A stretch of 64,000 bases of DNA from the NCBI GenBank assembly GCA_046563655.1, contig CM102285.1:7316001-7380000 (forward strand), written 5' to 3'. Source of the stretch: Yuukianura sp. NJ FZ-2021 (lineage: Eukaryota). Positions within the stretch are counted from its first letter, which is position 1. Each line of letters starts with the position of its first letter. Positions 38,401 through 51,722 of this stretch are shown one piece after another. A program made the position numbers and the translations under genes. The notes beneath the pieces are model-generated. The model worked only from the letters and a program-made list of their open reading frames with translations. It had not been told where the DNA came from and made no database searches.

Positions 38401-39435
38401 AGTGCTACGCAACCCACTTTCACTTGCTGTGTCGTCCCTCATCTTGTTCCCTTTATTTATGAAAACTCATGTTTCAAAACAAAGAATTCAAGAAAGTTGC
38501 ACTCCGGAACGATACTGGGTAAAAGTCAACTACAGTTTTGAAATCCTCATAAAAAAGGCTACATGAACCCAATTTCACTTGCTGTGTCGTCCCTCATCTT
38601 GTTACTTTTATTTATGAAAATTTGTTTCAAAACAAAGCATTCGAAAAACCTCAGTGCGGAACGATGCCGGGTGAAAATGACTTACTTTTCTGCACTCCTC
38701 CTGAAAAGTGCTGCAGGACCCCAAGTTTAATTGGTGTGGATAGATCGCCATTAAAGCTGGATAGAGCGGACTTAAAAGTCGGGATTAATCGCTCCGCCTC
38801 GAATTTTATCTGGGGTTTTTATACCGCACCCAGGGTAATGCCGAGCACCATTTTGACGTAAAATGACTTAAATTGGTGAGAATGAACATGCAAATGTGAG
38901 AATGAACGAAAAGTAAATTACATTTTTGAAATCCTCATAAAAAGTGCCACAGGTACACACTTTCACTTGCTGTGTCGTCCCTCATCTTGTTCCCTTTATT
39001 TATGAAAATTCATGTTTCAAAACAAAGAATTCAAAAGAAATGCATTAGGGAACGATGCTGGGTAAAAGTCAACTACATTTCTGAATTCCTCATAAAAAGT
39101 GCTACAGTAACCCACTTTCACTTGCTGTGTCGTCCCTCATCTTGTTACCTTTATTTATGAAAATTCATGTTTCAAAACAACAAATTCAAGAAAGTTGCAC
39201 TCCGGAACGATACTGGGTAAAAGTCAACTACAGTTTTGAAATCCTGATAAAAAAGGCTACATGAACCCAATTTCACTTGCTGTGTCGTCCCTCATCTCGT
39301 TACTTTTATTTATGAAAATTTGTTTCAAAACAAAGCATTCGAAAAACCTAAGTGCGGAACGATGCCGGGTAAAAATGACTTACTTTCCGAAATCCTCCTG
39401 AAAAGTACTGCAGGACCCCAAGTTTAATTGGTATG
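2462..39435 (+). repeat. Satellite array, ~697-bp unit (3 x ~155-bp subunits + spacer) with variant units
   Basis: The recurring pseudo-ORF starts are spaced 697 bp apart (2744, 3441, 4138, 4835). Subunit starts GTGTCGTC at 3441, 3596, 3750. Shorter (~543 bp) and longer (~851, ~1159, ~1312 bp) units differ by whole subunits. Confidence 0.98.
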
Positions 39436-39594
39436 AGTAGAATGGTAAGTTCCGCGAAGAACGTAAAACGTTCCGGATTCCTTTTGCGGAGGGAGTTGAG
39501 TCAGTTAGGAAGAATGCAAGGTTGAGGTCAAACGTTTGCCGTTCGATTGCAACTTGAGTTTTCCTCAGGAATATAAGGTTAGCTCAAGGTCCTT
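39436..39594 (+). repeat. Left terminal inverted repeat
   Basis: AGTAGAATGGTAAGTTCCGCGAAGAACG...CAAGGTCCTT is the reverse complement of 57253-57411, with 3 mismatches seen by eye. Confidence 0.95.
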
Positions 39595-40082
39595 GAATGG
39601 TAAGTTCGGCGAAGAACGTAAAACGTTCTGGATTCGTTCGCGCGTTTTTGGTCTGTGGGGGTGACTCACGAAAAGGTTAAGTTAAGATCGTTAAGTTTTT
39701 AAGTTAAGTCAGATCGTAAGTTTGCTGTGCCAGTTCTTGACGACATTTTGTTGTTGAAATCAGATATCTGAAAACTGAGTCATTCTAATGACAAAACATG
39801 ATGTTATTTTGAGTGTTGGACGTCCTTGGCATGCTTTTGGGATGTGGACAGAAATTTGTAGTTTCTGTCCTTGTGACACTGTGACAATTGTTTGGAGCGT
39901 TAGGATTCCAACCTTCGACCCCGATGGAGTATTTTGTTTAGTTGCACAATTTCTAAATGCTTTGGTTTTTAAGTCCGCCTCGTTCGTAAGATATAAAGAG
40001 GTTTGTTGTAAGTTGAAAGTTAATTTGAAAGTAAGTTGAGTTTGTGCTGTCAATCTCTGTCGTAAAAAAAAAAGAAAAAACC

Positions 40083-41450
40083 ATGGTTATTTGTCCCGTG
40101 TGTTTGGACAAGTTCGGGGACCATGAGCCGATGGACGTGAAGGCCATCGTCATCTCAACTGAGTGCAACCACGTGTTGCACTGGTAAGTAATTGTATCAG
40201 ATTCTTAGGATTAACGTGTTTGGTCAGGATTTAAAAACTTTGCGTTTTTAGGATTTGCATGCTGAATTGGGCTAATTCTGTCCATCCTGGATGCCTTGGA
40301 GATTCGGCCACAGTTGAGTAAGTACTTTTACTACTTTATATGTTAAGTTAAACCTTGTGCTAACTGTGTGCTTTTTCTTTCAGGACGGCATGTCCAGTGT
40401 GTCAGGCCATGGTCAAGACCACTGGGGAGAAAGTGGAGGGGCGAAGGCTGTTTCTGTCCATGCAGGAATGTGGCATGGCCTGGTCCGGTTTGGTGGTGAC
40501 TTCCGATAGGTAATTTTTCTTTTACGTTTTAATTGAAAAATGTTAAACAAAATTTTGTTTTTCTTTAAAAATCTTTAGTGATCGCATTCAGATCATCGAA
40601 AGCACGGTGATCGATCTGCAGGCCAGGATCGCTGCCTTGCCTGTGCAATACGCATTGTAAGCGTTTTGTAGTTTTTTAAGTTATGTGTGAAAATTAAATT
40701 TTTTAATTCGTTTTTTTTTCAGGGGTCAAAGAGTTGCGGAGTTGGAGTTCGGCAGTTGTCAAAAAACGAAAACAATTATGAACTTGCAGGCGGAACTGAA
40801 CAAAAAAGAAACGGACCTGAACTGTCGTACTACGGCGTGGTAAGTGTTTTTTTTTTGGTTTAACAATCTTTCAATGTTGCCAATTTTTGTGTCAAGTTTT
40901 TGTTTGTGTTTCTCTGTGTAGTTAGTAATTTCAATTTTTGTTTAGGGACAAAATCATGGCGAACAACTTAAGATTAATTGACGAATCGAACAAGCGGGGA
41001 GCAGCCTCAGAATCCCGCTGCGCGGAATTGAGCCAAAAACTCGTTGAATCCGAGGCGCGGTGGCACATGGCGAACATTCGTCACAAGGAGGAACAAGTGT
41101 CTTATGCCGCAAGGTTTGACATTGTTCACAAGAAACTTGAGGAGTCTGAAGAGAAAGTGCGCGAACTTCGTGAGCGTACTAAAATTGCCCAGGACAACCA
41201 GCAAGTGGCCGAAGTAGTTGCGTCTGCGGCTGAAACGGCAAAACGGGAAGCTGTGGAGGAGTTGAATCGACTCAAACAAGAGCTTGCTAACGTTGCCGTG
41301 AAGCGGGAAGTGGCTGAAGTGGAAGTGGCGGAGGAGCCAGTCCCGCCAAAACGCCCAAGGGGGCGCCCTCCAAAAAAGCGGGGGGGGTCTGCTGGTCCAA
41401 TGTGCGAAACTCGCAACATGCGATTGCGCCTTACCCGAGTTGGGTTTTAA
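40083..41450 (+). CDS. Spliced RING-H2 + coiled-coil + AT-hook protein (putative E3 ubiquitin ligase), ~330 aa, 6 exons
   Basis: Exons 40083-40183, 40252-40317, 40384-40509, 40579-40656, 40723-40839, 40946-41450. All introns are GT..AG with pyrimidine tracts and the frame stays open (993 nt). Gives CPVC...ECNHVLHWIC..NW...CPVC (C3H2C3), a heptad-rich middle and KRPRGRPPKK. TATAAA at 39992, AATAAA at ~41505. Confidence 0.85.
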
Positions 41451-41855
41451 ATACTTGAATTACTATTTAAAAAAAAAACAACATTTTTGTTTTGTTTGCA
41501 AAAAAATAAATTGAATTTTTTTTTCGTTGTACTTTTCGGTTTTTGTGGGTTTGCTGTTTGTACTATAAAAATGCGTTAGAAAAACTTTGTTTTTTAAGAA
41601 ATGTGAAAAGAATATCATCGAAATTCAAACTGTGAAAGTCTAGCATAATCACGTCAGGAGTTTTGGTAGGTGGCCCATGACCTTGGACTTTCACGTCGTA
41701 GTAGATGGTTAGGTGGTACTTTGGTGAGAAGACAAAGTTTGGACGCATCCCATCATCGTCTATCGTTGCTATCTTGTTAGACTGTGTTATCAGGTGACGT
41801 CATTTTTTTAGACTTTGGACGTTGAGGAAACGTTTGTTTTATCCTTGAGCTGGGG

Positions 41856-41880
41856 TATATAATTGAGTTGTTTTGTCATT
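41856..41880 (+). promoter_or_regulatory. TATA box and arthropod-type initiator for the F-box gene
   Basis: TATATAA at 41856, TCATT at 41876, ATG at 41945, and a CRE-like TGACGTCA at 41795. Confidence 0.55.
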
Positions 41881-41944
41881 TGTAACAGTACCTCACGCTT
41901 GTTAGAAAACCAGCAAAAGCACAAATTATAACACATTTGGGGCA

Positions 41945-43828
41945 ATGGAAGACCCGAAGTTGGAAAGCCTTCCGAATGAGGTGAGCTGTTGGGTAGGGTT
42001 TTGTAGGATTGACATCATGCGGGGTTATGTGAGAAGTTGGGTGTTTTAGAATCTCCACCATACGGGGTTATGTGAGAATTCGAGTGTTTTTGGATTTACG
42101 TCAAGTGGGGCATGGTGAGACTGGTTACATCATGCGGGGCAATGCAAGAGTTGACAGTTTTTTTTCAGAGAAATTTCGAGGAGGGGAAGGGGGCGATTCT
42201 CACGTTTCCCCAAACAGGAAAATCTTTAGCCGCGAAGGATATATATATACGAAAAAATGAATGAATTTTTTTGTTAACTAGATGTTGGCCCTTGTTCTGT
42301 CGTATTTGAATAATAATGAGCTGAGTAAAATGCGGCTTGTGTCTCGCGAGTGGAGAAAACGCGTTGACAGGTTCGTCACATATCCCAAGGCGCTTCCTGT
42401 TGCGATTCTGAGCTTTTTTTTTGAAGGATTTTTTTTTGGTTTAGGTTGGGATTGTGGAAGCTGGTGTGCTATAACAAGTGGCTCCCGCCGCATGTGAAGG
42501 AGTCGAAAGTGAGGCATCTTGTTCTGAAAAACTACCGTGACGCAGCGCTGCCTGCAATCAAGTTTCGCAGCCTGGTCCAGGAGGTAACATTTTCTGGCGC
42601 TTGCTCAATGAGCGGTCTGCGGAACGCAATTCGGACGTATTACTTTGTTCCTGCGATGAACTTTTTTCACGTTGGTGCAATTGGAAAGATCAATTGTGCC
42701 CAATTCACGCCATCTCAAATGGTGAGCCACTTCCAGAACTTGAAAATACTCAAGATTGACTCCTGCTTGTCCAACGGAAATGGCGGAAGGCACCAACAGC
42801 CCGGGTTGTTTGAAATTTTGTGCTCAAAACCCGACTTTGTACTAGCACAACTTTCCGAGTTCCATTTGTGTCACAAATTCAAGCCGGGCACAGTTCACAG
42901 CTTCTTCGAATTCATCCAAAGGCATCATGAGAAGTTGGAAGTTTTGAACCTAACATGTACGCGGAGCAATATGGAGTTTGGAGAGATCGGCCCTGTGGCA
43001 AACGTGGTGTTGCCAAAGTTGCGGGTTTTGGAGATCAGTTGTCTTCCGCACTACGCTTTCCCGTCCTCGTTTTTTAGTATTTGGTGGAAGTTGGTGGACT
43101 TGCCAAATGCTTTTGAATGCTTGAAGGTGGAACTAGACGGAGTTTCAATGCAACGGCTAGCTGTAATAATCAAGAATAGCAAAGAAAGCCTACGCAAGTT
43201 GGATGTTAGTAACGTGGTGATGGACGCGAGGTCGCCATATAGGATTGAGGGGTTGGAGGAACTGAATAATTTGACGGAATTGCGTCTGGAGTTTATTCCC
43301 CACAGCCACAGCCCATTCTTCTTTGGACACGGAAGATTTCAAGGGTTCCACAAAACTGTGTGTCAGCAGAATTATCCGAAGTCCATTTACAAACTTTCTC
43401 TGGTCGGCGCAAATGTGTTACGTGGGGAACTTGTAAGATCGATTGCATCTCTACCAAATTTGAGAAAACTACATTTGGACCGCCTTGGAGGTCACATTGA
43501 TTTTTCTTGCGGGGTTGACCATGTTGTGTTCTTGGAACTAGTTCCGAGACTTCCAGCCCTACAAGAAATTTCTTTGTCCGGTGTCTGTCAGCAAACAAGG
43601 TTCAGCTTTTCGCAGGACAAGGAATGCTGGAACAGGATTTTGGCTGCAGCTGATGCTTTGGGGGTTCTTGTTGTGATGGAAAACGGAAGAGGGAGTTCAG
43701 CAAGCACCCGGGGAGGGCAGATTTTGGCGGGAAAGTCGTTCACATTTAAGTTTGGTGAGAACATGGAAGCCAAGGACTTGCTGGTGAAGGAGTTGGAAAC
43801 GATTGCTGCTGACTATGGAAATTGGTAA
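41945..43828 (+). CDS. Spliced F-box/leucine-rich-repeat protein, ~502 aa, 3 exons
   Basis: Exons 41945-41980, 42282-42370, 42445-43828 join in frame. N-terminus LESLPNEMLALVLSYLNNNELSKMRLVSREWRKRVD is a canonical F-box. LxxLxL repeats follow (NLKILKI, KLEVLNL, KLRVLEI, SLRKLDV, NLTELRL, NLRKLHL, ALQEISL). AATAAA at ~43896. Confidence 0.88.
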
Positions 43829-44011
43829 TCGTCACTATATGATTCATGCCTATTTCTGAATTGTAAACGTTTTGCTGTCTCCCCTTTTCGATTTGAATAA
43901 AAAGTCGTTGTCTGTACGTTTTGTGCGGGGTATAAAATCATGGCACTTGTTGCATGTCAAATCATTCAGTTTCTGAGAAGCATTTGGAGAAGGAAGCTCT
44001 TATTTTTAACA

Positions 44012-44394
44012 ATGGACAAGAGAGGTAATTTTTTCATTCTACAATAGAAAAGATTTGGGAAAGTGATTTTTTTTGTGTATTAGGAGATGAAGCGGTCGTA
44101 GATGACGGCGTGGATCGTGAGGTGTTGAATTATGTGGAGGATGACAAAAAGTTGGACGTTTTCCATCGGGACTCGGTTTTTCAAGGACGACCATACACTT
44201 GGGTGTACTTTAAACGCAAGGGAAAGGTGGTCAACTTTGAGGGTCGGAACATTCCATATGTCATGCGGAAACTAACAAACATTTATTGCCGTGCCGTCGG
44301 GTGTGACTTGGAGAAGGCTACGGACACACTCCAAAGCTGCTTGAGAGAGGTCGCTTCTGCCAAGGAGGAAATTGAGGATATGCCTCACGATTAG
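44012..44394 (+). CDS. Small spliced hypothetical protein, ~107 aa, 2 exons
   Basis: TATAAAA at 43931 and TCATTCAGT at ~43962. Exon 44012-44024, GT..AG intron 44025-44083, exon 44084-44394 in frame with the listed ORF. AATAAA at ~44430. Confidence 0.65.
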
Positions 44395-44491
44395 AAATGT
44401 TATTTTTGAGGAATAATGTTTTTTTGAAAAATAAAAGCTCCATTGTGAGTGTTGTGCAGCATTAAGAAAAAAAGACCTTTACTTGTTGTTC

Positions 44492-45017
44492 TTATTTAGT
44501 ATGTGGGGTACAACATTGAGTTGGGCCATAGTAGGGGATAGTTTTTACTATTTGACGTAGCAGTTTTCTGACAAACCGCTTTACTAGCCTATCATTTGTA
44601 ATAGTGTTTGAAGTAAAGTTACAGTAGATTGACATTAAACAGCAGGAATGCAAAAGTTTAAACAGAAAGTAAATTGCATACTCACCACAAACTGTAGAAT
44701 TTATACTTTGAAGTTGTTTTGTGTTTTCGATTATGGATTGTGTTTAAACGTTTGGCAAAATTTTGCAGAGCTATATCATACATTTCTACACCAAGTCCAT
44801 AAGAATCTACAAATGTTAGTGGAGATTTTGAATTTTCTCTAAACAGGGCTAGCCAATGTTGTCCTGGATGGTGAGAAGGAGCACTGTTGACGACAAGTAG
44901 AAGAGGGTAGGTGAAAATTTCCATGGTATTTAAATGATCAATTGGAATTACATCAAAAGTGGAAGGATGTTTGCCAACAATTTTCGCCAGATAAGAGTAA
45001 ATTTGTTGTGTATTCAT
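44492..45017 (-). pseudogene. Adenain-like cysteine maturation protease, one 1-nt frameshift (~44740)
   Basis: N-part has VVNS...PGQHW...FVDSYG (catalytic His/Asp). The QLQSINSTVCGEYAIYF segment with the catalytic Cys and the tail NDRLVKRFV...TQCCTPHTK* lie in the +1 frame. Span is 526 nt, one more than a multiple of 3. Could be a sequencing error. Confidence 0.85.
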
Positions 45018-46360
45018 TGTTGAAGGCTGGCAAGACTGTAGTCTCTAAAGTATACTGATTTTGAGGAATCAATATGTAGGACGGATTGAAATTCGGCGTA
45101 GACAAGGACGGTGACAGAGCTTTTGAGTGCAGTTTTAAATTTTAGATCAATTTTGACGTTGCCGTATTTGGGAGTAGGAAAACCTTCTTTTGAATGTCTG
45201 AGATTATATAGCATAAGCGGATGAGATTTGAATTCTTCACGGTTCAAATCTAGTCCAACGTCATCGTTGGCAATTCCGAGACTACAAAATAGATTGTGGT
45301 AGAGTTGAACATATTGATCTTGCGTAAAGTCTACATGTGTCCCAAGTGAAGTTCCAGAGTCACCATTAATGCTAACATTTATGTAGCTCAAATCAAAGTG
45401 TTCAAATGCAAATGGATTTGTGGTTATAGATCCAATGTAGTTTTCTGAAGGTAAAAGTCCAATTAGTAGTCGATCACAAATGACACCAGAAATGAGATTT
45501 TCGTTGACGTTGGTAACTGTGCCAGGGGATAGAGTATATGTTTTAATTTCAACTCGTTTCATTGGATATGTTGCTGGCCTTCCATGCTCCCAAGTTTGGA
45601 GAATTGAAGTTAGTAATGAGGGAAGAAGTTGATGGCGTTGTACAATGAGGCGAGCATCTTGAATTTGAACTTGGTAGTTACCAGCTGTTTTGGCAACGAG
45701 ACAAAACTCTGGTGTGGATCTTAAAAATGAAATGCGTAAGTCGATTGAAGGAACGAGAAATTTGTTTTGGACACAAAGGTCGGTAAACGGACGTCCAACC
45801 ATTTCAATTATTTTGCTTTTGACTGCAAATGTGTATCTTTGTTTAAATCCATCTTCTTTTGTTTCATCTGTACATTTAGGATCTTTGTCCTTGTAGAAAA
45901 GGGAGCATTGACTTTGAGAGCGTTTGTATTCTTTTCCATATCCGAGTAAAGTTTCCAAGTATGCTCTGTAGGCATACTGTAAACTTGCAGGAGTAATTAA
46001 AACTTCATTGAGATATATGGAACACTGTAGAAATAGCGAGTGAAGGAAATTGTTGGCTGGAGCAACAATGCTGTTGTCATCCAAATCCGTGCCGTTCGAC
46101 TTTACAATTTTAACTTTTAAATAAAGTTTCGTTTCAGACAAGTCGATTAGTTCAGTTTGATTTCCTTGTACAAAAAATTCCAGAGGGGCTTGATTGTCTG
46201 AAAGTGAGTTGATTGAATGGAATTCCGTAGCTGAGGTTGATGCGAGACTAACATCAAAGATTGGTTCTTCAAAGAGTTGTGTTTCTGATCTAACAAATGT
46301 GTAAGGCAAAGAAGAAGAAGCTGTGCTAGGAGAAACTTTAGAAGACCTAACTTTCGGCAT
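45014..46360 (-). CDS. Major capsid protein (double jelly-roll, Polinton PY/hexon-like)
   Basis: 448-aa intact ORF with motifs typical of Polinton MCPs (IDLSETKLYLKVKI, NNFLHSLF, YAYRAYLETLL, NPFAFEHF) and located next to the protease. Confidence 0.85.
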   Translation of the reverse strand: MPKVRSSKVSPSTASSSLPYTFVRSETQLFEEPIFDVSLASTSATEFHSINSLSDNQAPLEFFVQGNQTELIDLSETKLYLKVKIVKSNGTDLDDNSIVAPANNFLHSLFLQCSIYLNEVLITPASLQYAYRAYLETLLGYGKEYKRSQSQCSLFYKDKDPKCTDETKEDGFKQRYTFAVKSKIIEMVGRPFTDLCVQNKFLVPSIDLRISFLRSTPEFCLVAKTAGNYQVQIQDARLIVQRHQLLPSLLTSILQTWEHGRPATYPMKRVEIKTYTLSPGTVTNVNENLISGVICDRLLIGLLPSENYIGSITTNPFAFEHFDLSYINVSINGDSGTSLGTHVDFTQDQYVQLYHNLFCSLGIANDDVGLDLNREEFKSHPLMLYNLRHSKEGFPTPKYGNVKIDLKFKTALKSSVTVLVYAEFQSVLHIDSSKSVYFRDYSLASLQQ

Positions 46361-46378
46361 TTTTGTTGTTGTTGTTGT

Positions 46379-46827
46379 TCAAAATAGGTATCTTGGTTTG
46401 GAGGGTTTTATTTTCTTTTTGACAATTTTCTTCTTCTTCTTCCCTTTCTTTCGTTTTTTACGCTTCTTTACGGCTCGCCGTCCAGATCCTGTCTGACTCA
46501 GCAAGTCCCGTCCTACTCCTTTAAGAGCGTCTATACCGTGGGAACGAAGTGATTCAGAGATTGGTCGTTTACGTTCAATTAGGTCGGATGCAACTGAGCG
46601 GGCTGCATTCAATGCATGTGGAGCGATATATTTTTTTAAAAATGGTACTAGCCTTCTTGCAAATGTACCTAGTACGGCTCCTAACCCTGCTCCTCTTTGT
46701 CTTCGTACTCCAGAAAAAATATGGGGGATCCATAGCCAACTTGATGAAGAGAGGAGGGATGGGTTGAAAATTTGAAGAAATTTTGAGCACTATCTCTGGC
46801 ACAATTGTATGGGACTAGGGCTCTCAT
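46379..46827 (-). pseudogene. Basic core/membrane-lytic-like Polinton virion protein, one 1-nt frameshift (~46715-46727)
   Basis: ATG 46827 gives MRALVPYNC...QVGYGSP. Another frame continues FSGVRRQRGAGLGAVLGTFARRLVPFLKK...QTGSGRRAVKKRKKRKK to the stop at 46379. Span is 449 nt, one short. The QxGxG motifs, amphipathic helix and basic tail are typical of this Polinton gene. Confidence 0.7.
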
Positions 46828-46840
46828 TTTGTTTTTGGTT

Positions 46841-47642
46841 TTAATATTTTCGCTGACGGAAGCGAAGTGTCGCCGTCACGTTTCCAAATTGTAATGCCAG
46901 ATTTTCTCCAACTTCATTTAATAAGTAGATCTTGACAGTGTCAAACTCACTTACGGCAAGGTCCAAAAAATATGGATGTGTAAATTCATTTACAACTTGG
47001 CGTCGTATGTGTCCATCATAATTGACAACTCTCAGACACTGTACAAGTACATCTCCAACAAATTGTGGTTTAATTAGGTTACAGTATACAAACATTTTTG
47101 TATTTCCAGTAATTGAAAAACACTGGCATTGTTCCTTGACCTTTGAGTTGAAAAGGTTGTTTTAAAAAAAGTTTTTCTGTAGCTTTAGCACTACTTGTTA
47201 CAGAAAGATTTGCTTTAGGTAGTCCAAGTATATCAACCAATTTTTGGGAAACTATAATTCCTTCATGTAGCAAAGGGAATTGATAATAGAAGATGTGGTC
47301 CCTAATTTCAAAAGTTGCTCCGGTTAGAGCAGATGAAAGTTCTTGTAACAGTTCCTGTTCACTTGTAATGTTTCTGCTACAAACATATGTTTGTAGGCTT
47401 GATACTGACTCATCTTCACTTTTTTTGAAAGTTGAAAATAACACGTCACCAGAATGTATTATTGCATTTCCAAATGTGTATGAAATTTCTGTGAGCGCAA
47501 CTTCCCATTGCCCAGCTGGCAGTGAGATTGTTGTGGAAAGACGGTTCTTGAAATTTGAAATTTTATTATCTGGAAATAAATCCATACATGCGTTTGATTG
47601 TAATGTTACAAAAAATGAGGTGTCACGCTGTTGATGCGCCAT
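46841..47642 (-). pseudogene. Minor capsid protein (penton/PX-like), one 1-nt frameshift (~47116-47120)
   Basis: N-part FFVTLQSN..MDLFPDNKISNF...WEVALTEISY and C-part MFVYCNLIKPQFVGD...YFLDL...TLRFR are in two overlapping ORFs. Removing one base from the A5 run joins them (span 802 nt). Confidence 0.82.
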
Positions 47643-47745
47643 TTTCTTTTTGAGATTCACGTGTTTATTTGACGAAATACAAAATCACACTAAGATAAAA
47701 TACAACGTTTACTTACTACTTAAGAAACAAAAAAGTAGAGGGGGC

Positions 47746-47985
47746 ACAGGGGTTAAAAACCCCGGGTTGCACGCAGGTGTAAAACCCATGTTGTACGCAG
47801 GGCTTAAACCCAAGTTGTACGCAGGGCTTAAACCCCAGTTGCACGCAGGGCTTAAATACAAGTTGCACGCAGGGCTTTAACCCAAGTTGCACGCAGGGCT
47901 TAAACCCAAGTTGCACGCAGGGTTAAAACCCACGTGGTCAGCAGGGAGTAACACCCAGCGTAGCATTGTTGGGTTTAAAACCCAC
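47746..47985. repeat. 24-bp minisatellite (~8 copies plus degenerate tail) inside the Polinton
   Basis: Consensus CCCAAGTTGCACGCAGGGCTTAAA repeated. The 8-aa periodic ORFs on both strands reflect it. Confidence 0.9.
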
Positions 47986-48047
47986 CATGATAAAGCAGGG
48001 ACCGCGCGCGCGTGCATCCCTGCAAGCATGGGGAGCATGGAGCACTT

Positions 48048-49067
48048 TCAATTTTTATATGCTTCCCAACTTTTGGCAAGTTGTTTTTTGACAATGTTTT
48101 TTTTACTTTTTGTACTATCATTTATAGTAGTTACGTTTCCTCGTTTTCGGAGTCTGTCTTTGATCGGTAGAGATTTGGGTGGAGATGATTTTTGATGTTG
48201 TTGTTGTTGCTGTTGTTGTTGTGGGGACAAGGTTGGTGGTGTACCAAATGTATTACTTTCCACATCATCATCCCCCTCCTCCTCCTCAACATTTCCTTCA
48301 GAATCGCCTTTAAAAAGGGATGAAAGGGGGGTTGTTGGTTCAATGGTAACTGTTGTAGTAGTTAAGTTTCTACTACCAACTTCTCCTGTTGGTACTTTCT
48401 CAAGAATTCTACGCACAGTTTGTGGTGGTGTTTGGATTTCTTCAAATTTTTGTAAATGTTCATTGACATCATTCCATCCAACTGGTAGATTGAGGATAAG
48501 ATTTTGTTTTTGCCTTTCGGATAAATTTTTCTTTTTAAATGAAACAAATTGAGAGAGGACATTGATGATATTTGAAGAAGGAATCCGCTTATTATCAATT
48601 AAAATTTCCAAATCTGAATTCCAACTAATATTACTAAATTTCATAAAGTTTAAAAACTTTTTGGCATCCTTTCCTGGTACTTGTTTTAAAATGTATGGTT
48701 CTGTAACATACTCAATGTTTTGTAACAAGTTGGATGGATTGTTGCTGTTGTTGTTGTTCTTGTTGTTGTTGTTGTTACTGATGTTTGAGTTTGATGTCAA
48801 ATTAGGAGTAGTTTCAGAAATAGATTTGACTAAAACTGGACGATTTGACAAAAGTTTTTGTTTTTGGAGAAGGCGGCGAGAAAAATCATAGTATAAAAGA
48901 GCTTTGATATCATCTGGTACATCGTCAACTGATAAAATTGTTTGCTTCTTGTATTCTAAATCTTCATTTCCACCCCCCACAATCTTAAGTGACTCTTTGG
49001 AACTTTTGTTTGGCTCTTCATACTTGTTTTTGTACTCTGATTCTGATATTAGACGCATTCGTTTCAT
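48048..49067 (-). CDS. Conserved Polinton hypothetical protein with low-complexity tracts
   Basis: 339-aa ORF. ISWNSDLEILIDNKRIPSSNIINVL...PVGW resembles a motif I recognise from Polinton uncharacterised proteins. Has poly-N, poly-Q and acidic tracts. Confidence 0.65.
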   Translation of the reverse strand: MKRMRLISESEYKNKYEEPNKSSKESLKIVGGGNEDLEYKKQTILSVDDVPDDIKALLYYDFSRRLLQKQKLLSNRPVLVKSISETTPNLTSNSNISNNNNNKNNNNSNNPSNLLQNIEYVTEPYILKQVPGKDAKKFLNFMKFSNISWNSDLEILIDNKRIPSSNIINVLSQFVSFKKKNLSERQKQNLILNLPVGWNDVNEHLQKFEEIQTPPQTVRRILEKVPTGEVGSRNLTTTTVTIEPTTPLSSLFKGDSEGNVEEEEGDDDVESNTFGTPPTLSPQQQQQQQQHQKSSPPKSLPIKDRLRKRGNVTTINDSTKSKKNIVKKQLAKSWEAYKN

Positions 49068-49399
49068 TTTTGAAAAATGGCTGATAAAACACTTGGGATC
49101 ATGGATCCTAATAGCAATGGAATTATTGCACCACCCCTTTGAGACAAAAGTTTTTTCTTTTTTGCCAACGATGAGCGTTTCTTCTTGACAATTGAAAGTA
49201 TTGTTCTTTTGAATGGACGCAACTTTTCAACTGTAGACTTTTTTAGTCCAACATTTTTTTTATATATATTCAAAACACATTCACAAATACTTTTGACTTC
49301 ACCACTACTAGCATATTTAATTAAAGCTTTTCTTTGCTGTGGTGAACACTTGATTAAATATCTCAAAAAATCTGAATTTTCTTTCACAGTTGTAGACAT
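49064..49399 (-). CDS. Small basic Polinton protein ending in QRGG + hydrophobic tail (putative virion/core precursor)
   Basis: Likely start ATG 49399 (ORF open to 49447). ICECVLN...KKKLLSQRGGAIIPLLL pattern. The stop overlaps the next ATG (ATGA). Confidence 0.7.
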   Translation of the reverse strand: MSTTVKENSDFLRYLIKCSPQQRKALIKYASSGEVKSICECVLNIYKKNVGLKKSTVEKLRPFKRTILSIVKKKRSSLAKKKKLLSQRGGAIIPLLLGSMIPSVLSAIFQK

Positions 49400-49526
49400 G
49401 GTTGAGTGCAGGTTATGCGTGTGACCCGTTTCATGTTGAAACTTCAAATGACTAATTCCATTGTGTATACCTCTCCTATAAAAAGTTTGGCATTTTCAAA
49501 TTCTAGGGTCAGATTTCATTTGTACA

Positions 49527-50489
49527 ATGGAGCAAAAACATTTGATAGAGAAAATACGCAAAGACTACGTCAATCCTCGTTCAAGTTTTGCATTTTCAGG
49601 ATTAGAAGGCACTTTTAAAGTTCAAAAGAAGAGTGGAGTCAGAAAACTTGATGTACTAAAAGCATTAGAACAAATTCCAGCTTATACTCTTCACAAACCG
49701 GCTCGGAAACACTACAACAGACGACAAGTTTTTATACCGTCCATAAGATATCAGTATATAATTGATCTAATCGATATTTCAAAGTATTCCGAAGCAAATA
49801 CGAATCATAAGTTCTTGTTGACTTGTATTGACGGTTTCTCAAAAGTCGCTGACGTCATCCCTTTAAAAAATAAAACTGGGACTCAAGTAGCAAACGCTTT
49901 ACAAAAAATTTTTAAGAAAAGAGGCACTCCAAAGTCAATTCAATTTGACGAAGGGAAAGAATTTTTAAATCGAAATGTTAAACAACTTTTAAAACAACAC
50001 TCTGTTCTATCCTTTAGTACTAGATCAGAACTGAAAGCAGTAATTGTTGAAAGATTTAACCAAACATTAATGAGAAGGTTGGCGAGATATATGACACACA
50101 ATCAGACAACAAAATTTTTAGATGTTTTGCAAAATATTGTAAATTCATACAACAACACCTACCATCGCTCCATCAAATGTACACCAAACCAAGTCAATGA
50201 CGACACAAAAACTCAAGTATTTCTAAACTTGTACGGACACTCACCAAAACAAAACCGACCAAAACGGAAACGTGCTACCTTCAATGTTGGAGACTCCGTA
50301 CTACTTAGTAAAAATAAAACACTTTTTGAAAAGGGATACGCCCAAAGTTGGACAAAAGAAATTTTTCAAATTGTTGAAGTTTGCAACACCGTCCCTGTCA
50401 CTTACAAGTTAAAAGACGGCAAAGGTGAAGACATATTTGGAATATTTTACAACGAGGAGCTGCAACGCGTTCCTCAGTCTTCAGTTTAA
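49527..50489 (+). CDS. Retroviral-like DDE integrase
   Basis: 320 aa with IDLID, QFDEGKEF and VERFN catalytic triad contexts, YNNTYHRSIKCTP, and an SH3-like C-terminus FNVGDSV...FEKGY...FYNEELQ. Confidence 0.95.
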   Translation: MEQKHLIEKIRKDYVNPRSSFAFSGLEGTFKVQKKSGVRKLDVLKALEQIPAYTLHKPARKHYNRRQVFIPSIRYQYIIDLIDISKYSEANTNHKFLLTCIDGFSKVADVIPLKNKTGTQVANALQKIFKKRGTPKSIQFDEGKEFLNRNVKQLLKQHSVLSFSTRSELKAVIVERFNQTLMRRLARYMTHNQTTKFLDVLQNIVNSYNNTYHRSIKCTPNQVNDDTKTQVFLNLYGHSPKQNRPKRKRATFNVGDSVLLSKNKTLFEKGYAQSWTKEIFQIVEVCNTVPVTYKLKDGKGEDIFGIFYNEELQRVPQSSV

Positions 50490-50647
50490 CTTTGCCGTGA
50501 CATGAGCTCGTGTCAAATTTGCTCTCTGTGGCGTTCTTTTTCAAATTTTTGCTTCAAAAAAATTCAACTACTACAATTACTGTTTGTGAAACATTTTCTT
50601 GTAACTGTAACCTCAACAAAACCTCGGAACCCTCTCAGGCAATCGAA

Positions 50648-50998
50648 ATGGAATCTCCAATTCAAGATTTTCTTAACCTAAATCCAAATCTTCTCACGGA
50701 AACTACCCAAGAGAAAAAACAACGCAAACGAGTTCGAATACCCAAACTACCTCGCAAAGTTACATCTCTGGCAATGGTTGTTGAAGTTCGTCAAGAGTTT
50801 CCTAAACCGCATCCACCACCACGAGTTAATTTGGAGGATGGTTGGCAGCTCTACATTGGCAACGAACAAGGAAACGACCAAGGACCTCTGACACATTTAC
50901 ATATCAAAAATGTTTATGATGCTGGATCTGGTGTCGTTATTCCAATTCATTTATTTGAGTGTCTCACCGAAGGACTTTCAAAATTAAAACGGAACTAA
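50648..50998 (+). CDS. Hypothetical protein, ~116 aa (weak PC4-like pattern)
   Basis: First ATG at 50648 within the 50510-50998 ORF, converging tightly on the ATPase stop. HLHIK...SGVVIP..LFECL pattern. Confidence 0.5.
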   Translation: MESPIQDFLNLNPNLLTETTQEKKQRKRVRIPKLPRKVTSLAMVVEVRQEFPKPHPPPRVNLEDGWQLYIGNEQGNDQGPLTHLHIKNVYDAGSGVVIPIHLFECLTEGLSKLKRN

Positions 50999-51004
50999 GG
51001 TAAA

Positions 51005-51664
51005 TTACTTTTTTAAATAAACTATACAAGAGTCTGGATCTGCAAATACATTTGACCTAATTCGAAAGTCATCATTTTGACTTTGAGACATATCTAAAAA
51101 CAAGTAACTATTTGGCTTATTCTTTGTGGCGTCTTCAAATGCTTCTTCTAGTGTTGAATTTGATTTTCCGCCATTCATTTGTCGTCCCAGATATTTTATT
51201 ATAGTTTTATCTCTCGGATTTCGAAATAACGCAACATATTTTGCATTTAAAGTCAAATTCCTACATCCCTTGAAGAAAAAATTTTGAATCGTAATCATCA
51301 GAGAGAGTGACCGGTGATGAGACCCGCGGGTAACCATTTTACAAACATCCAATGATGATCCAATGTCTTCCATAAAGTCATCCAGCACAACAAGTGTTGG
51401 CTTCTTGTTTCCAACGTCAACGTCAATTTGATCCATGCCTTGGCAAAAATCAATTTCAATATCTTTTGCACTATTAATTTCTCTTAATCGTTTTGCAAAG
51501 TCCGGCTCATCTTCTGCATAACAATAGACTACACGCTTGACTTTCGGCTCAACAACTTCTTCGATACGTTCCAAAATGTTTTTGATCAAAGTACTTTTTC
51601 CACTTTGTGTAGGTCCCGCCAAAACCATCACAAACGGATGCTGCAAAGAACATTGAATTTCCAT
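51005..51664 (-). CDS. A32/FtsK-HerA-like DNA packaging ATPase
   Basis: Walker A GPTQSGKS, Walker B LVVLDD, followed by RGSHHRSLSLMITIQN and LNAKY..LFRNPRD. Confidence 0.93.
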   Translation of the reverse strand: MEIQCSLQHPFVMVLAGPTQSGKSTLIKNILERIEEVVEPKVKRVVYCYAEDEPDFAKRLREINSAKDIEIDFCQGMDQIDVDVGNKKPTLVVLDDFMEDIGSSLDVCKMVTRGSHHRSLSLMITIQNFFFKGCRNLTLNAKYVALFRNPRDKTIIKYLGRQMNGGKSNSTLEEAFEDATKNKPNSYLFLDMSQSQNDDFRIRSNVFADPDSCIVYLKK

Positions 51665-51722
51665 CTTGACAAATCAAACACCAAACAACTACTAAATGCG
51701 CGGACAATTAATCTAGTTGGCT

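Follow-up and report, generated by a model that had tools for sequence, protein, structure and literature searches.

A putative six-exon RING-H2 and AT-hook gene in the cargo region of a satellite-embedded Polinton from Yuukianura sp.

The Polinton/Maverick element described here lies in a 64,000-nucleotide stretch of contig CM102285.1 from Yuukianura sp. NJ FZ-2021 (NCBI GenBank assembly GCA_046563655.1, positions 7,316,001–7,380,000 of the forward strand), which we refer to, at its full length, as the window. The element carries a gene at 40083–41450 (+) that consists of six exons and five GT-AG introns and is predicted to encode a 330-aa protein with an N-terminal RING-H2 domain, a long helix, and a basic AT-hook-like tail. 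Our preferred, if tentative, reading is that this is a lineage-specific accessory gene whose product would be a nuclear, DNA-associated, and probably oligomeric RING-H2 ubiquitin ligase acting on host nuclear proteins for the benefit of the element. That it is an active ubiquitin ligase (E3), that it forms oligomers and binds DNA in the nucleus, what it targets, and that the element gains from it are all inferred from the domains alone. Maverick accessory cargo and viral RING ligases are both known kinds, and the architecture seen here is without a report for such elements. The literature covered, in part as partial texts, describes no Polinton gene that combines a RING, a helix, and an AT-hook; subscription journals and the supplementary tables of two papers (PMC8502044; PMC8097293), which may list accessory RING genes, lay outside its scope. 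An initial annotation of this DNA, which knew of no such Polinton gene, did not take into account that intron-bearing cargo beside a Maverick terminal repeat has already been described in the accessible part of a study of nematodes (10.1101/2022.07.12.499685).

Gene model and encoded domains

In the list of open reading frames (ORFs) of at least 110 aa, exon 6 is the sole visible part of the gene, and each of the three unspliced frames contains 17–23 stops. The initial annotation had proposed a six-exon gene hidden from the ORF track in exactly this way, and its coordinates, anatomy, and 330-aa product were all reproduced. We enumerated all 432 combinations of GT and AG around the five gaps. 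Only 8 of these keep the frame open from the ATG at 40083 to the stop codon at 41448–41450, and introns 2 and 3 are identical in all eight. The 330-aa model that we chose is the combination with consensus signals at every site, and the five introns are canonical at every junction of this model, as had been claimed. Its exons lie at 40083–40183, 40252–40317, 40384–40509, 40579–40656, 40723–40839, and 40946–41450 (all +), and are separated by introns of 68, 66, 69, 66, and 106 nt. Some latitude exists at the acceptor of intron 4, for which there are two candidates (40722 or 40731), the second giving exon 5 an alternative boundary at 40731/40732.

The splice signals of the chosen model are strong. 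Its donors read gtaagt (three times), gtaatt, and gtaagc, and its acceptors are pyrimidine-rich and terminate in cag or tag. GTAAG occurs four times on the + strand of the gene, each time as a predicted donor at the end of an exon. The GC content is 0.46–0.58 in exons vs. 0.16–0.31 in introns, with the contrast present at all five introns. All five introns are also in phase 2, so each of the four internal exons is a multiple of three and the frame would survive the skipping of any one of them. The start codon has a strong context (A at −3 and G at +4). A pattern search located a candidate promoter element, TATAAA, at 39992–39997 (+), 91 nt upstream of the ATG, and the candidate polyadenylation signal AATAAA lies at 41505–41510 (+), 55 nt past the stop. 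From these signals we infer that the gene is spliced and expressed. The idea that the introns are mutual copies (‘introners’) was also tried and rejected, as z-scores of 0.6–4.3 in pairwise alignments revealed no convincing family. A 150-aa open frame runs antisense to exon 6 (41007–41459, −), and is most simply explained as a by-product of the codon composition of the helix-encoding strand.

The strongest argument for the splice model is that the eight ligands of the RING are split over three exons, so that the domain arises only after splicing. Exon 1, which encodes aa 1–33 plus 2 nt of the next codon, supplies C4, C7, C28, H30, and H33. Exon 2 supplies C36, along with W40 at the ‘C-x3-W’ position, and exon 3 supplies the last pair (C59-P-V-C62), followed by Gln and a linker. 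RING-H2 domains have the pattern C-x2-C-x(9-39)-C-x(1-3)-H-x(2-3)-H-x2-C-x(4-48)-C-x2-C, and a regular expression for this pattern matched the spliced model at aa 4–62. The eight ligands thus fit C3H2C3 in canonical spacing, and the ligand set of the RING described at the outset is complete.

Pfam and PDB were queried with single exons. Exon 1 alone matched seven RING-type Pfam families, the best being zf-RING_2 (E 6e-4, 20.5 bits), while exon 2 alone (21 aa) had no Pfam match and exon 3 alone had no PDB match at E<=10. In the PDB, exon 1 matched five RNF4 RING chains with E-values from 1.5e-7 to 1.7e-3, and the next family, TRIM21, followed at E 0.46. In the alignment to the RNF4 RING, 13 of 30 residues are identical, and the shared stretches comprise CP[IV]C[ML]D and a long first loop ending in [IV]STEC.HV (‘IVISTEC.HV’ in exon 1). 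TRAIP-type ligases have an N-terminal RING plus a long coiled coil, an architecture that resembles that of the window protein, and the initial annotation had named TRAIP/RFWD3-type and viral RINGs for comparison. Exon 1 is closest to RNF4. Its PDB matches at E<=10 number 10 and include neither ICP0 nor TRAIP; the PDB copy searched may hold no TRAIP RING.

Downstream of the RING, a heptad-periodic helical region begins in exon 4 (40579–40656), continues through exon 5 (40723–40839), and extends far into exon 6. A hydrophobic periodicity of 3.5 residues spans aa 98–290 in one register across the joins of exons 4–6, and its value is reached by 0.4% of 2000 shuffles. Within exon 6 alone the periodicity is weaker, being reached by 11% of shuffles. 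AlphaFold2 predicted a single helix at residues 2–127 of exon 6 (40950–41327), with pLDDT above 90 through residue 120, and then a disordered tail; the mean pLDDT over exon 6 is 84.2. Where the initial annotation had a long coiled coil, the model thus gives a helix of about 126 residues, and the helical region of exons 4–6 likely forms a coiled coil. Short tetrapeptides resembling SUMO-interacting motifs (SIMs) were found by regular expression in exon 4 (40586–40618), at aa 101–104 (IQII) and 108–111 (VIDL), with a further one at aa 171; such motifs are expected by chance.

The disordered tail is rich in Pro, Gly, and basic residues, and contains the AT-hook-like run K298–R308 (41349–41381, +), which was read from the sequence as K-R-P-R-G-R-P-P-K-K-R. 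AT-hooks of the HMGA type are defined by an R-G-R-P core flanked by Lys/Arg, and the run has such a core at R301-G-R-P304, so that the C-terminal AT-hook named in the initial annotation can be recognised by its motif. HMGA carries three hooks in a small chromatin protein, whereas the window protein would be an E3 ligase that ends in a single hook. Alternatively, or in addition, the basic run may serve as a nuclear localisation signal.

The surrounding element and its relatives

Nearly all of the window is tandem satellite made of 154/155-bp units, in blocks that repeat ~700 bp apart, and a single insertion of ~18 kb (39436–57411) breaks it. The array around the insertion comprises at least 45 kb of these units. 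Between the right end of the insertion and the restart of the satellite lie 124 nt of non-satellite DNA (57412–57535); the left flank was inspected over 39400–39435. The insertion is bounded by terminal inverted repeats with arms of 159 nt at 39436–39594 and 57253–57411, which are 98% complementary. Its termini read AGTAG.../...CTACT and may be compared with the AGT/ACT end motifs reported for vertebrate Mavericks (PMC8097293). Its genes include an integrase (Pfam rve, E 2.3e-11, 44.3 bits vs. a cut-off of 32.6), a candidate A32/IVa2-like packaging ATPase (AAA, Adeno_IVa2, and Pox_A32 matches, all below the Pfam cut-off), a polymerase-sized ORF of 1292 aa (51723–55601, −), and a capsid ORF of 454 aa. 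Taken with the inverted repeats, these genes identify the insertion as a Polinton/Maverick, flanked on both sides by satellite units as the initial annotation had stated.

In the polymerase-sized ORF, a polymerase-type motif, ‘YTDTDS’, was seen by eye, and no polymerase family was found in Pfam at E<=0.01. Residues 514–567 of this ORF match Recombination endonuclease VII (Endonuclease_7) above the cut-off (Pfam E 1.5e-6). By sequence, the 454-aa ORF is assigned as the major capsid protein of the animal Maverick type. It has 322 database homologues, the best at 61% identity, and the three with NCBI names (‘F54H12.2(-like)’ or hypothetical proteins) belong to a spider, a sea spider, and an octocoral. 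It matched no Pfam family and has no relative in the viral contig collection. Seven copies of a 24-nt tandem repeat (47766–47932) lie between two ORFs on the capsid side. A 392-aa ORF with long Asn and Gln runs is present at 48048–49226 (−), and its N-terminal part is kept in 11 of the 80 related loci described below.

Two features are a poor fit to a clean, intact insertion. The first is that the flanks, GGTATG at the left end and TTAATC at the right, show no 6-bp target-site duplication, and the element may have inserted into other sequence embedded in the satellite array. The second is the gene at the protease position after the capsid (44501–45017, −), whose homology is split over two reading frames near 44737–44739. 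Its relatives have a single ORF of 181–182 aa, and the split reflects either a frame shift in the window copy or a sequencing error.

The RING gene is located ~500 nt inside the left inverted repeat, between the repeat and the core genes, and its block has a GC content of 0.42–0.45 vs. about 0.38. In nematode Mavericks, the cargo region between the left repeat and the core has been characterised by ‘high GC%, low nucleotide conservation, genes with introns’ in the portion of the study available (10.1101/2022.07.12.499685). The gene fits Maverick cargo, as it is repeat-proximal, higher in GC, intron-bearing, and poorly conserved; position, GC, introns, and poor conservation between related elements are likewise shared with the cargo described in the accessible texts on nematode and vertebrate Mavericks (10.1101/2022.07.12.499685; PMC8097293). 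The nematode cargo covered there consists of proteases and kinases with ubiquitin-like domains, in contrast to the RING-H2, helix, and AT-hook of the window gene.

With the capsid protein aligned to its 19 best matches as the query, 80 related loci, most of them short, were collected from metagenomes (369,680 nt). The protease region is found in 52 of them, while 33 have a match to the integrase and 18 to the ATPase. Only L001 and L003, whose capsids are 61% identical to that of the window element, clearly span the side of the element on which the gene lies. Both keep the gene order capsid, protease, ORF121 homologue, and leucine-rich repeat (LRR) homologue. Past the LRR gene, four tandem small Cys-rich ORFs replace the RING gene in each (L001 7318–8719, −; L003 4409–5666, −). 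These ORFs have a repeated C-x2-C...C-x2-C...H...C...C-x2-C arrangement, and their zinc-ribbon matches are sub-threshold. They may correspond to the ‘Oncoid’ genes of adintoviruses. Adintovirus-type elements are described, in the part of the source available, as combining a polymerase that bears an OTU-like domain with Cys-rich ‘Oncoid’ genes (PMC8502044); no LxCxE motif, as in those ‘Oncoid’ genes, was found. Because other genes occupy the same slot in L001 and L003, the repeat-proximal slot is variable and the RING gene specific to the lineage of the window element.

Readings of the predicted protein

If the protein is a DNA-anchored ligase, as we tentatively favour, its gene would be driven by its own TATA-type promoter, and its transcript would undergo five splicing events. 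The N-terminal RING, with its RNF4-like first loop, would recruit a ubiquitin-charged E2. The heptad-periodic helix of ~190 residues would pair or bundle the protein, uniting two RINGs, as is needed by RINGs that act as dimers, RNF4 among them. The basic AT-hook tail would provide for nuclear import, and then for retention on A/T-rich DNA. The anchored ligase would ubiquitinate nearby host nuclear proteins, for which chromatin-bound repressors or DNA-sensing/repair factors are likely candidates. The nuclear RING ligases of DNA viruses, such as baculovirus IE2 and herpesvirus ICP0, would provide the precedent.

RNF4, a nuclear SUMO-targeted E3, is active as a dimer, and its structures are the best solved match to exon 1 (2xeu, 4ap4, 3ng2, 4ppe, 2ea6). 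The likeness is seen in exon 1, and the SIMs of the window protein are candidates. Ligand 5 is His in the window protein and Cys in RNF4, and the last Cys is followed by Gln rather than Arg. The RING occupies aa 4–62 of 330, whereas that of RNF4 is C-terminal, with the tail completing the dimer. The window RING also has a 22-residue insert before the last Cys pair, which gives it a longer second loop. ICP0, a nuclear RING E3 of herpes simplex virus, clears repressive proteins from nuclear bodies and centromeres; its RING is of the C3HC4 type, and it is not known to have a coiled coil or an AT-hook. In IE2 the RING is internal and no AT-hook is known. The accessible portion of the IE2 literature describes this viral RING E3 as self-associating by way of a coiled coil at its C-terminus and as forming nuclear bodies dependent on both domains (PMC4749218). 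As a nuclear E3 of an invertebrate DNA virus with a RING plus coiled coil, IE2 as described there is likened to the window protein by architecture. In the wider Polinton-like group, an E3 ligase gene that went undetected in other virophages is described for CpV-PLV ‘Curly’, a polinton-like virus, in the part of the source available (PMC6459981). ‘Curly’ is likened to the window element by that description; its host, as given there, is a protist with a giant virus.

Several observations weigh against the ligase reading. The gene is known from a single copy, from which neither conserved intron positions nor purifying selection could be read. The window copy of the element is not wholly intact, its protease gene being split between frames, and the open frame of the RING gene may reflect youth (the inverted repeats are 98% alike) rather than selection. 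The spliced model matched none of the 80 related loci at E<=0.01, and the gene is therefore not needed by the element family. Large protein searches with the 167-aa product of exon 6, over 5.8 billion clusters and 1.84 billion representatives, gave no homologue. They returned 3130 candidates, none at E<=0.001, and 552 candidates, none at E<=0.01; among the 1.84 billion representatives there were 0 at E<=0.001. Pattern matches of exon 6 in viral contigs (28) and metagenome contigs (597) yielded none that was confirmed, and its best score in the ESM Atlas (0.87) is under the meaningful level. The expectation in the initial annotation that this is not a common Polinton gene accords with these results. 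RNF4-like relatives of the N-terminal RING part may exist in large protein databases. The nearest capsid relative is just 61% identical, so close relatives of the element are unsampled and the blanks say little about sister copies.

The domains themselves raise further points of the same kind. The zf-RING_2 score of exon 1, when scored alone, is below the cut-off of 27.3 bits, as expected from its coverage of profile positions 3–26 (24 of 44). The residue after the last RING Cys, which we take to be the E2~ubiquitin ‘linchpin’ position, is Gln where RNF4 has Arg (‘CPTCR’), and the activity may therefore be weak. Charged residues make up 39% of the helix (26 acidic and 23 basic among 127), and it may be a single stable helix instead of a coiled coil. 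The AT-hook went unrecognised by Pfam when exon 6 was queried at E<=10, which returned sub-threshold helical noise only, and a search of the PDB with the 40-aa tail gave 0 matches at E<=10.

The main rival to the ligase reading is that the gene is a passenger, which we consider unlikely while still deserving serious attention. A host RING/coiled-coil gene, or a fragment of one fused to new sequence, would have been captured recently as genomic DNA and would serve no role for the element. The five introns favour such a capture, since the core genes of the element are intronless long ORFs, and those of intact vertebrate Mavericks are likewise described with ‘No introns’ (PMC8097293). The GC content of the gene is above that of the core genes, the two closest relatives covering its slot (L001 and L003) lack the gene, and the window copy already has a frame-shifted protease gene. 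Uptake by the element is also the published view of nematode Maverick cargo, which is read as ‘taken up from the host’ in the text available (10.1101/2022.07.12.499685). However, the TATA box, the strong start context, all five pairs of splice sites, and the poly(A) signal have been kept, and the presence of two further ubiquitin-system genes on the element suggests selection for such cargo.

The initial annotation had gone further and proposed that the ligase de-silences or remodels the satellite chromatin; in this model the AT-hook tethers it to the satellite, where degradation of heterochromatin or centromere proteins would allow the element to be expressed. We regard this as improbable. 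Its sharper form, which we rate as more doubtful still, is a DNA-anchored SUMO-targeted ligase like RNF4 and ICP0 that, by its RNF4-type RING, its SIM-like motifs, and its dimerising helix, would destroy SUMO-marked silencing or centromere proteins, with the AT-hook confining it to A/T-rich repeats, so that the element stays expressible in satellite heterochromatin. The satellite of at least 45 kb around the element is consistent with this proposal, as are the A/T runs of at least 6 nt, which number 24–26 per kb in the satellite vs. 15.7 in the element. The RNF4-like RING and the SIM-like IQII and VIDL downstream of it point in the same direction. ICP0 and RNF4 are named together in the SUMO-targeted ligase literature, and both are tied to the turnover of CENP-B, which binds satellite DNA, in the accessible part of one such source (10.1101/245597). 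Against this, one insertion is uninformative on any preference for satellites, and the satellite is just 62% AT. The AT-hook is generic, and its basic run could equally be a nuclear import signal. A four-residue SIM pattern at the hydrophobic start of a helix is a chance expectation, and the RING is of the H2 type and N-terminal, while that of RNF4 is C3HC4 and C-terminal.

It is highly improbable that the protein is instead a targeting factor, which would bridge incoming element DNA or integrase to A/T-rich chromatin and so steer integration, with the RING as an interaction module. An AT-hook combined with an oligomerising helix would make a bivalent DNA tether, and the element does sit in a repeat array, but the gene is missing from the two closest relatives and the full set of RING-H2 ligands argues for E2 binding. 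Least probable, and very unlikely, is that there is no gene and that chance open stretches happen to be flanked by GT and AG: although the C-terminal half is without a homologue in the searches, eight canonically spaced RING ligands appear only when three exons are joined, all four GTAAG occurrences fall at exon ends, the GC contrast holds at every intron, exon 1 has independent RING and RNF4 matches, and the heptad register runs on across the exon joins.

Ubiquitin-system cargo and its implications

Two further genes outside the core of the element belong to the ubiquitin system. The ORF adjoining the RING gene (467 aa, 42425–43828, +) encodes an LRR protein. Homologues are found at the same position in L003 (2799–4280, −) by tblastn and in L001 (5636–7111, −) by synteny, and in the L001 protein an F-box scores above the Pfam cut-off (E 6.6e-5). 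The window ORF has no in-frame start close to its N-terminus, which makes an upstream exon likely. At the right end of the element, an IAP-like gene is formed by two exons (56220–56858 and 56920–57051, −) separated by a 61-nt GT-AG intron with a GC content of 0.23. The predicted protein of 256 aa has one BIR domain (Pfam E 4e-8) and a C-terminal C3HC4 RING (E 8e-11). Among the 80 related loci, 3 (L034, L038, and L045) also have a RING of the IAP type. The IAP-like BIR and RING gene and the LRR gene with its F-box homologue together suggest that ubiquitin-system cargo is a theme of this lineage.

Polintons/Mavericks are regarded as viruses with a transposon lifestyle, and little is known about how they handle the nuclear defences of their hosts. 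Present evidence on the RING gene amounts to a single unverified orphan, seen in one copy. When such elements are annotated by their ORFs, multi-exon cargo of this kind is overlooked. The window element carries three ubiquitin-system genes outside its core: the RING-H2/helix/AT-hook gene, a relative of F-box/LRR genes, and the IAP-like BIR and RING gene. Should these genes be expressed, the element would be manipulating protein turnover and cell death in its host in a manner close to that of large DNA viruses, and the RING gene would be a concrete candidate for a chromatin-acting factor. If the SUMO-targeted reading were true, the protein would be the first counter-silencing ligase for a Polinton, and an invertebrate parallel to herpesvirus ICP0.

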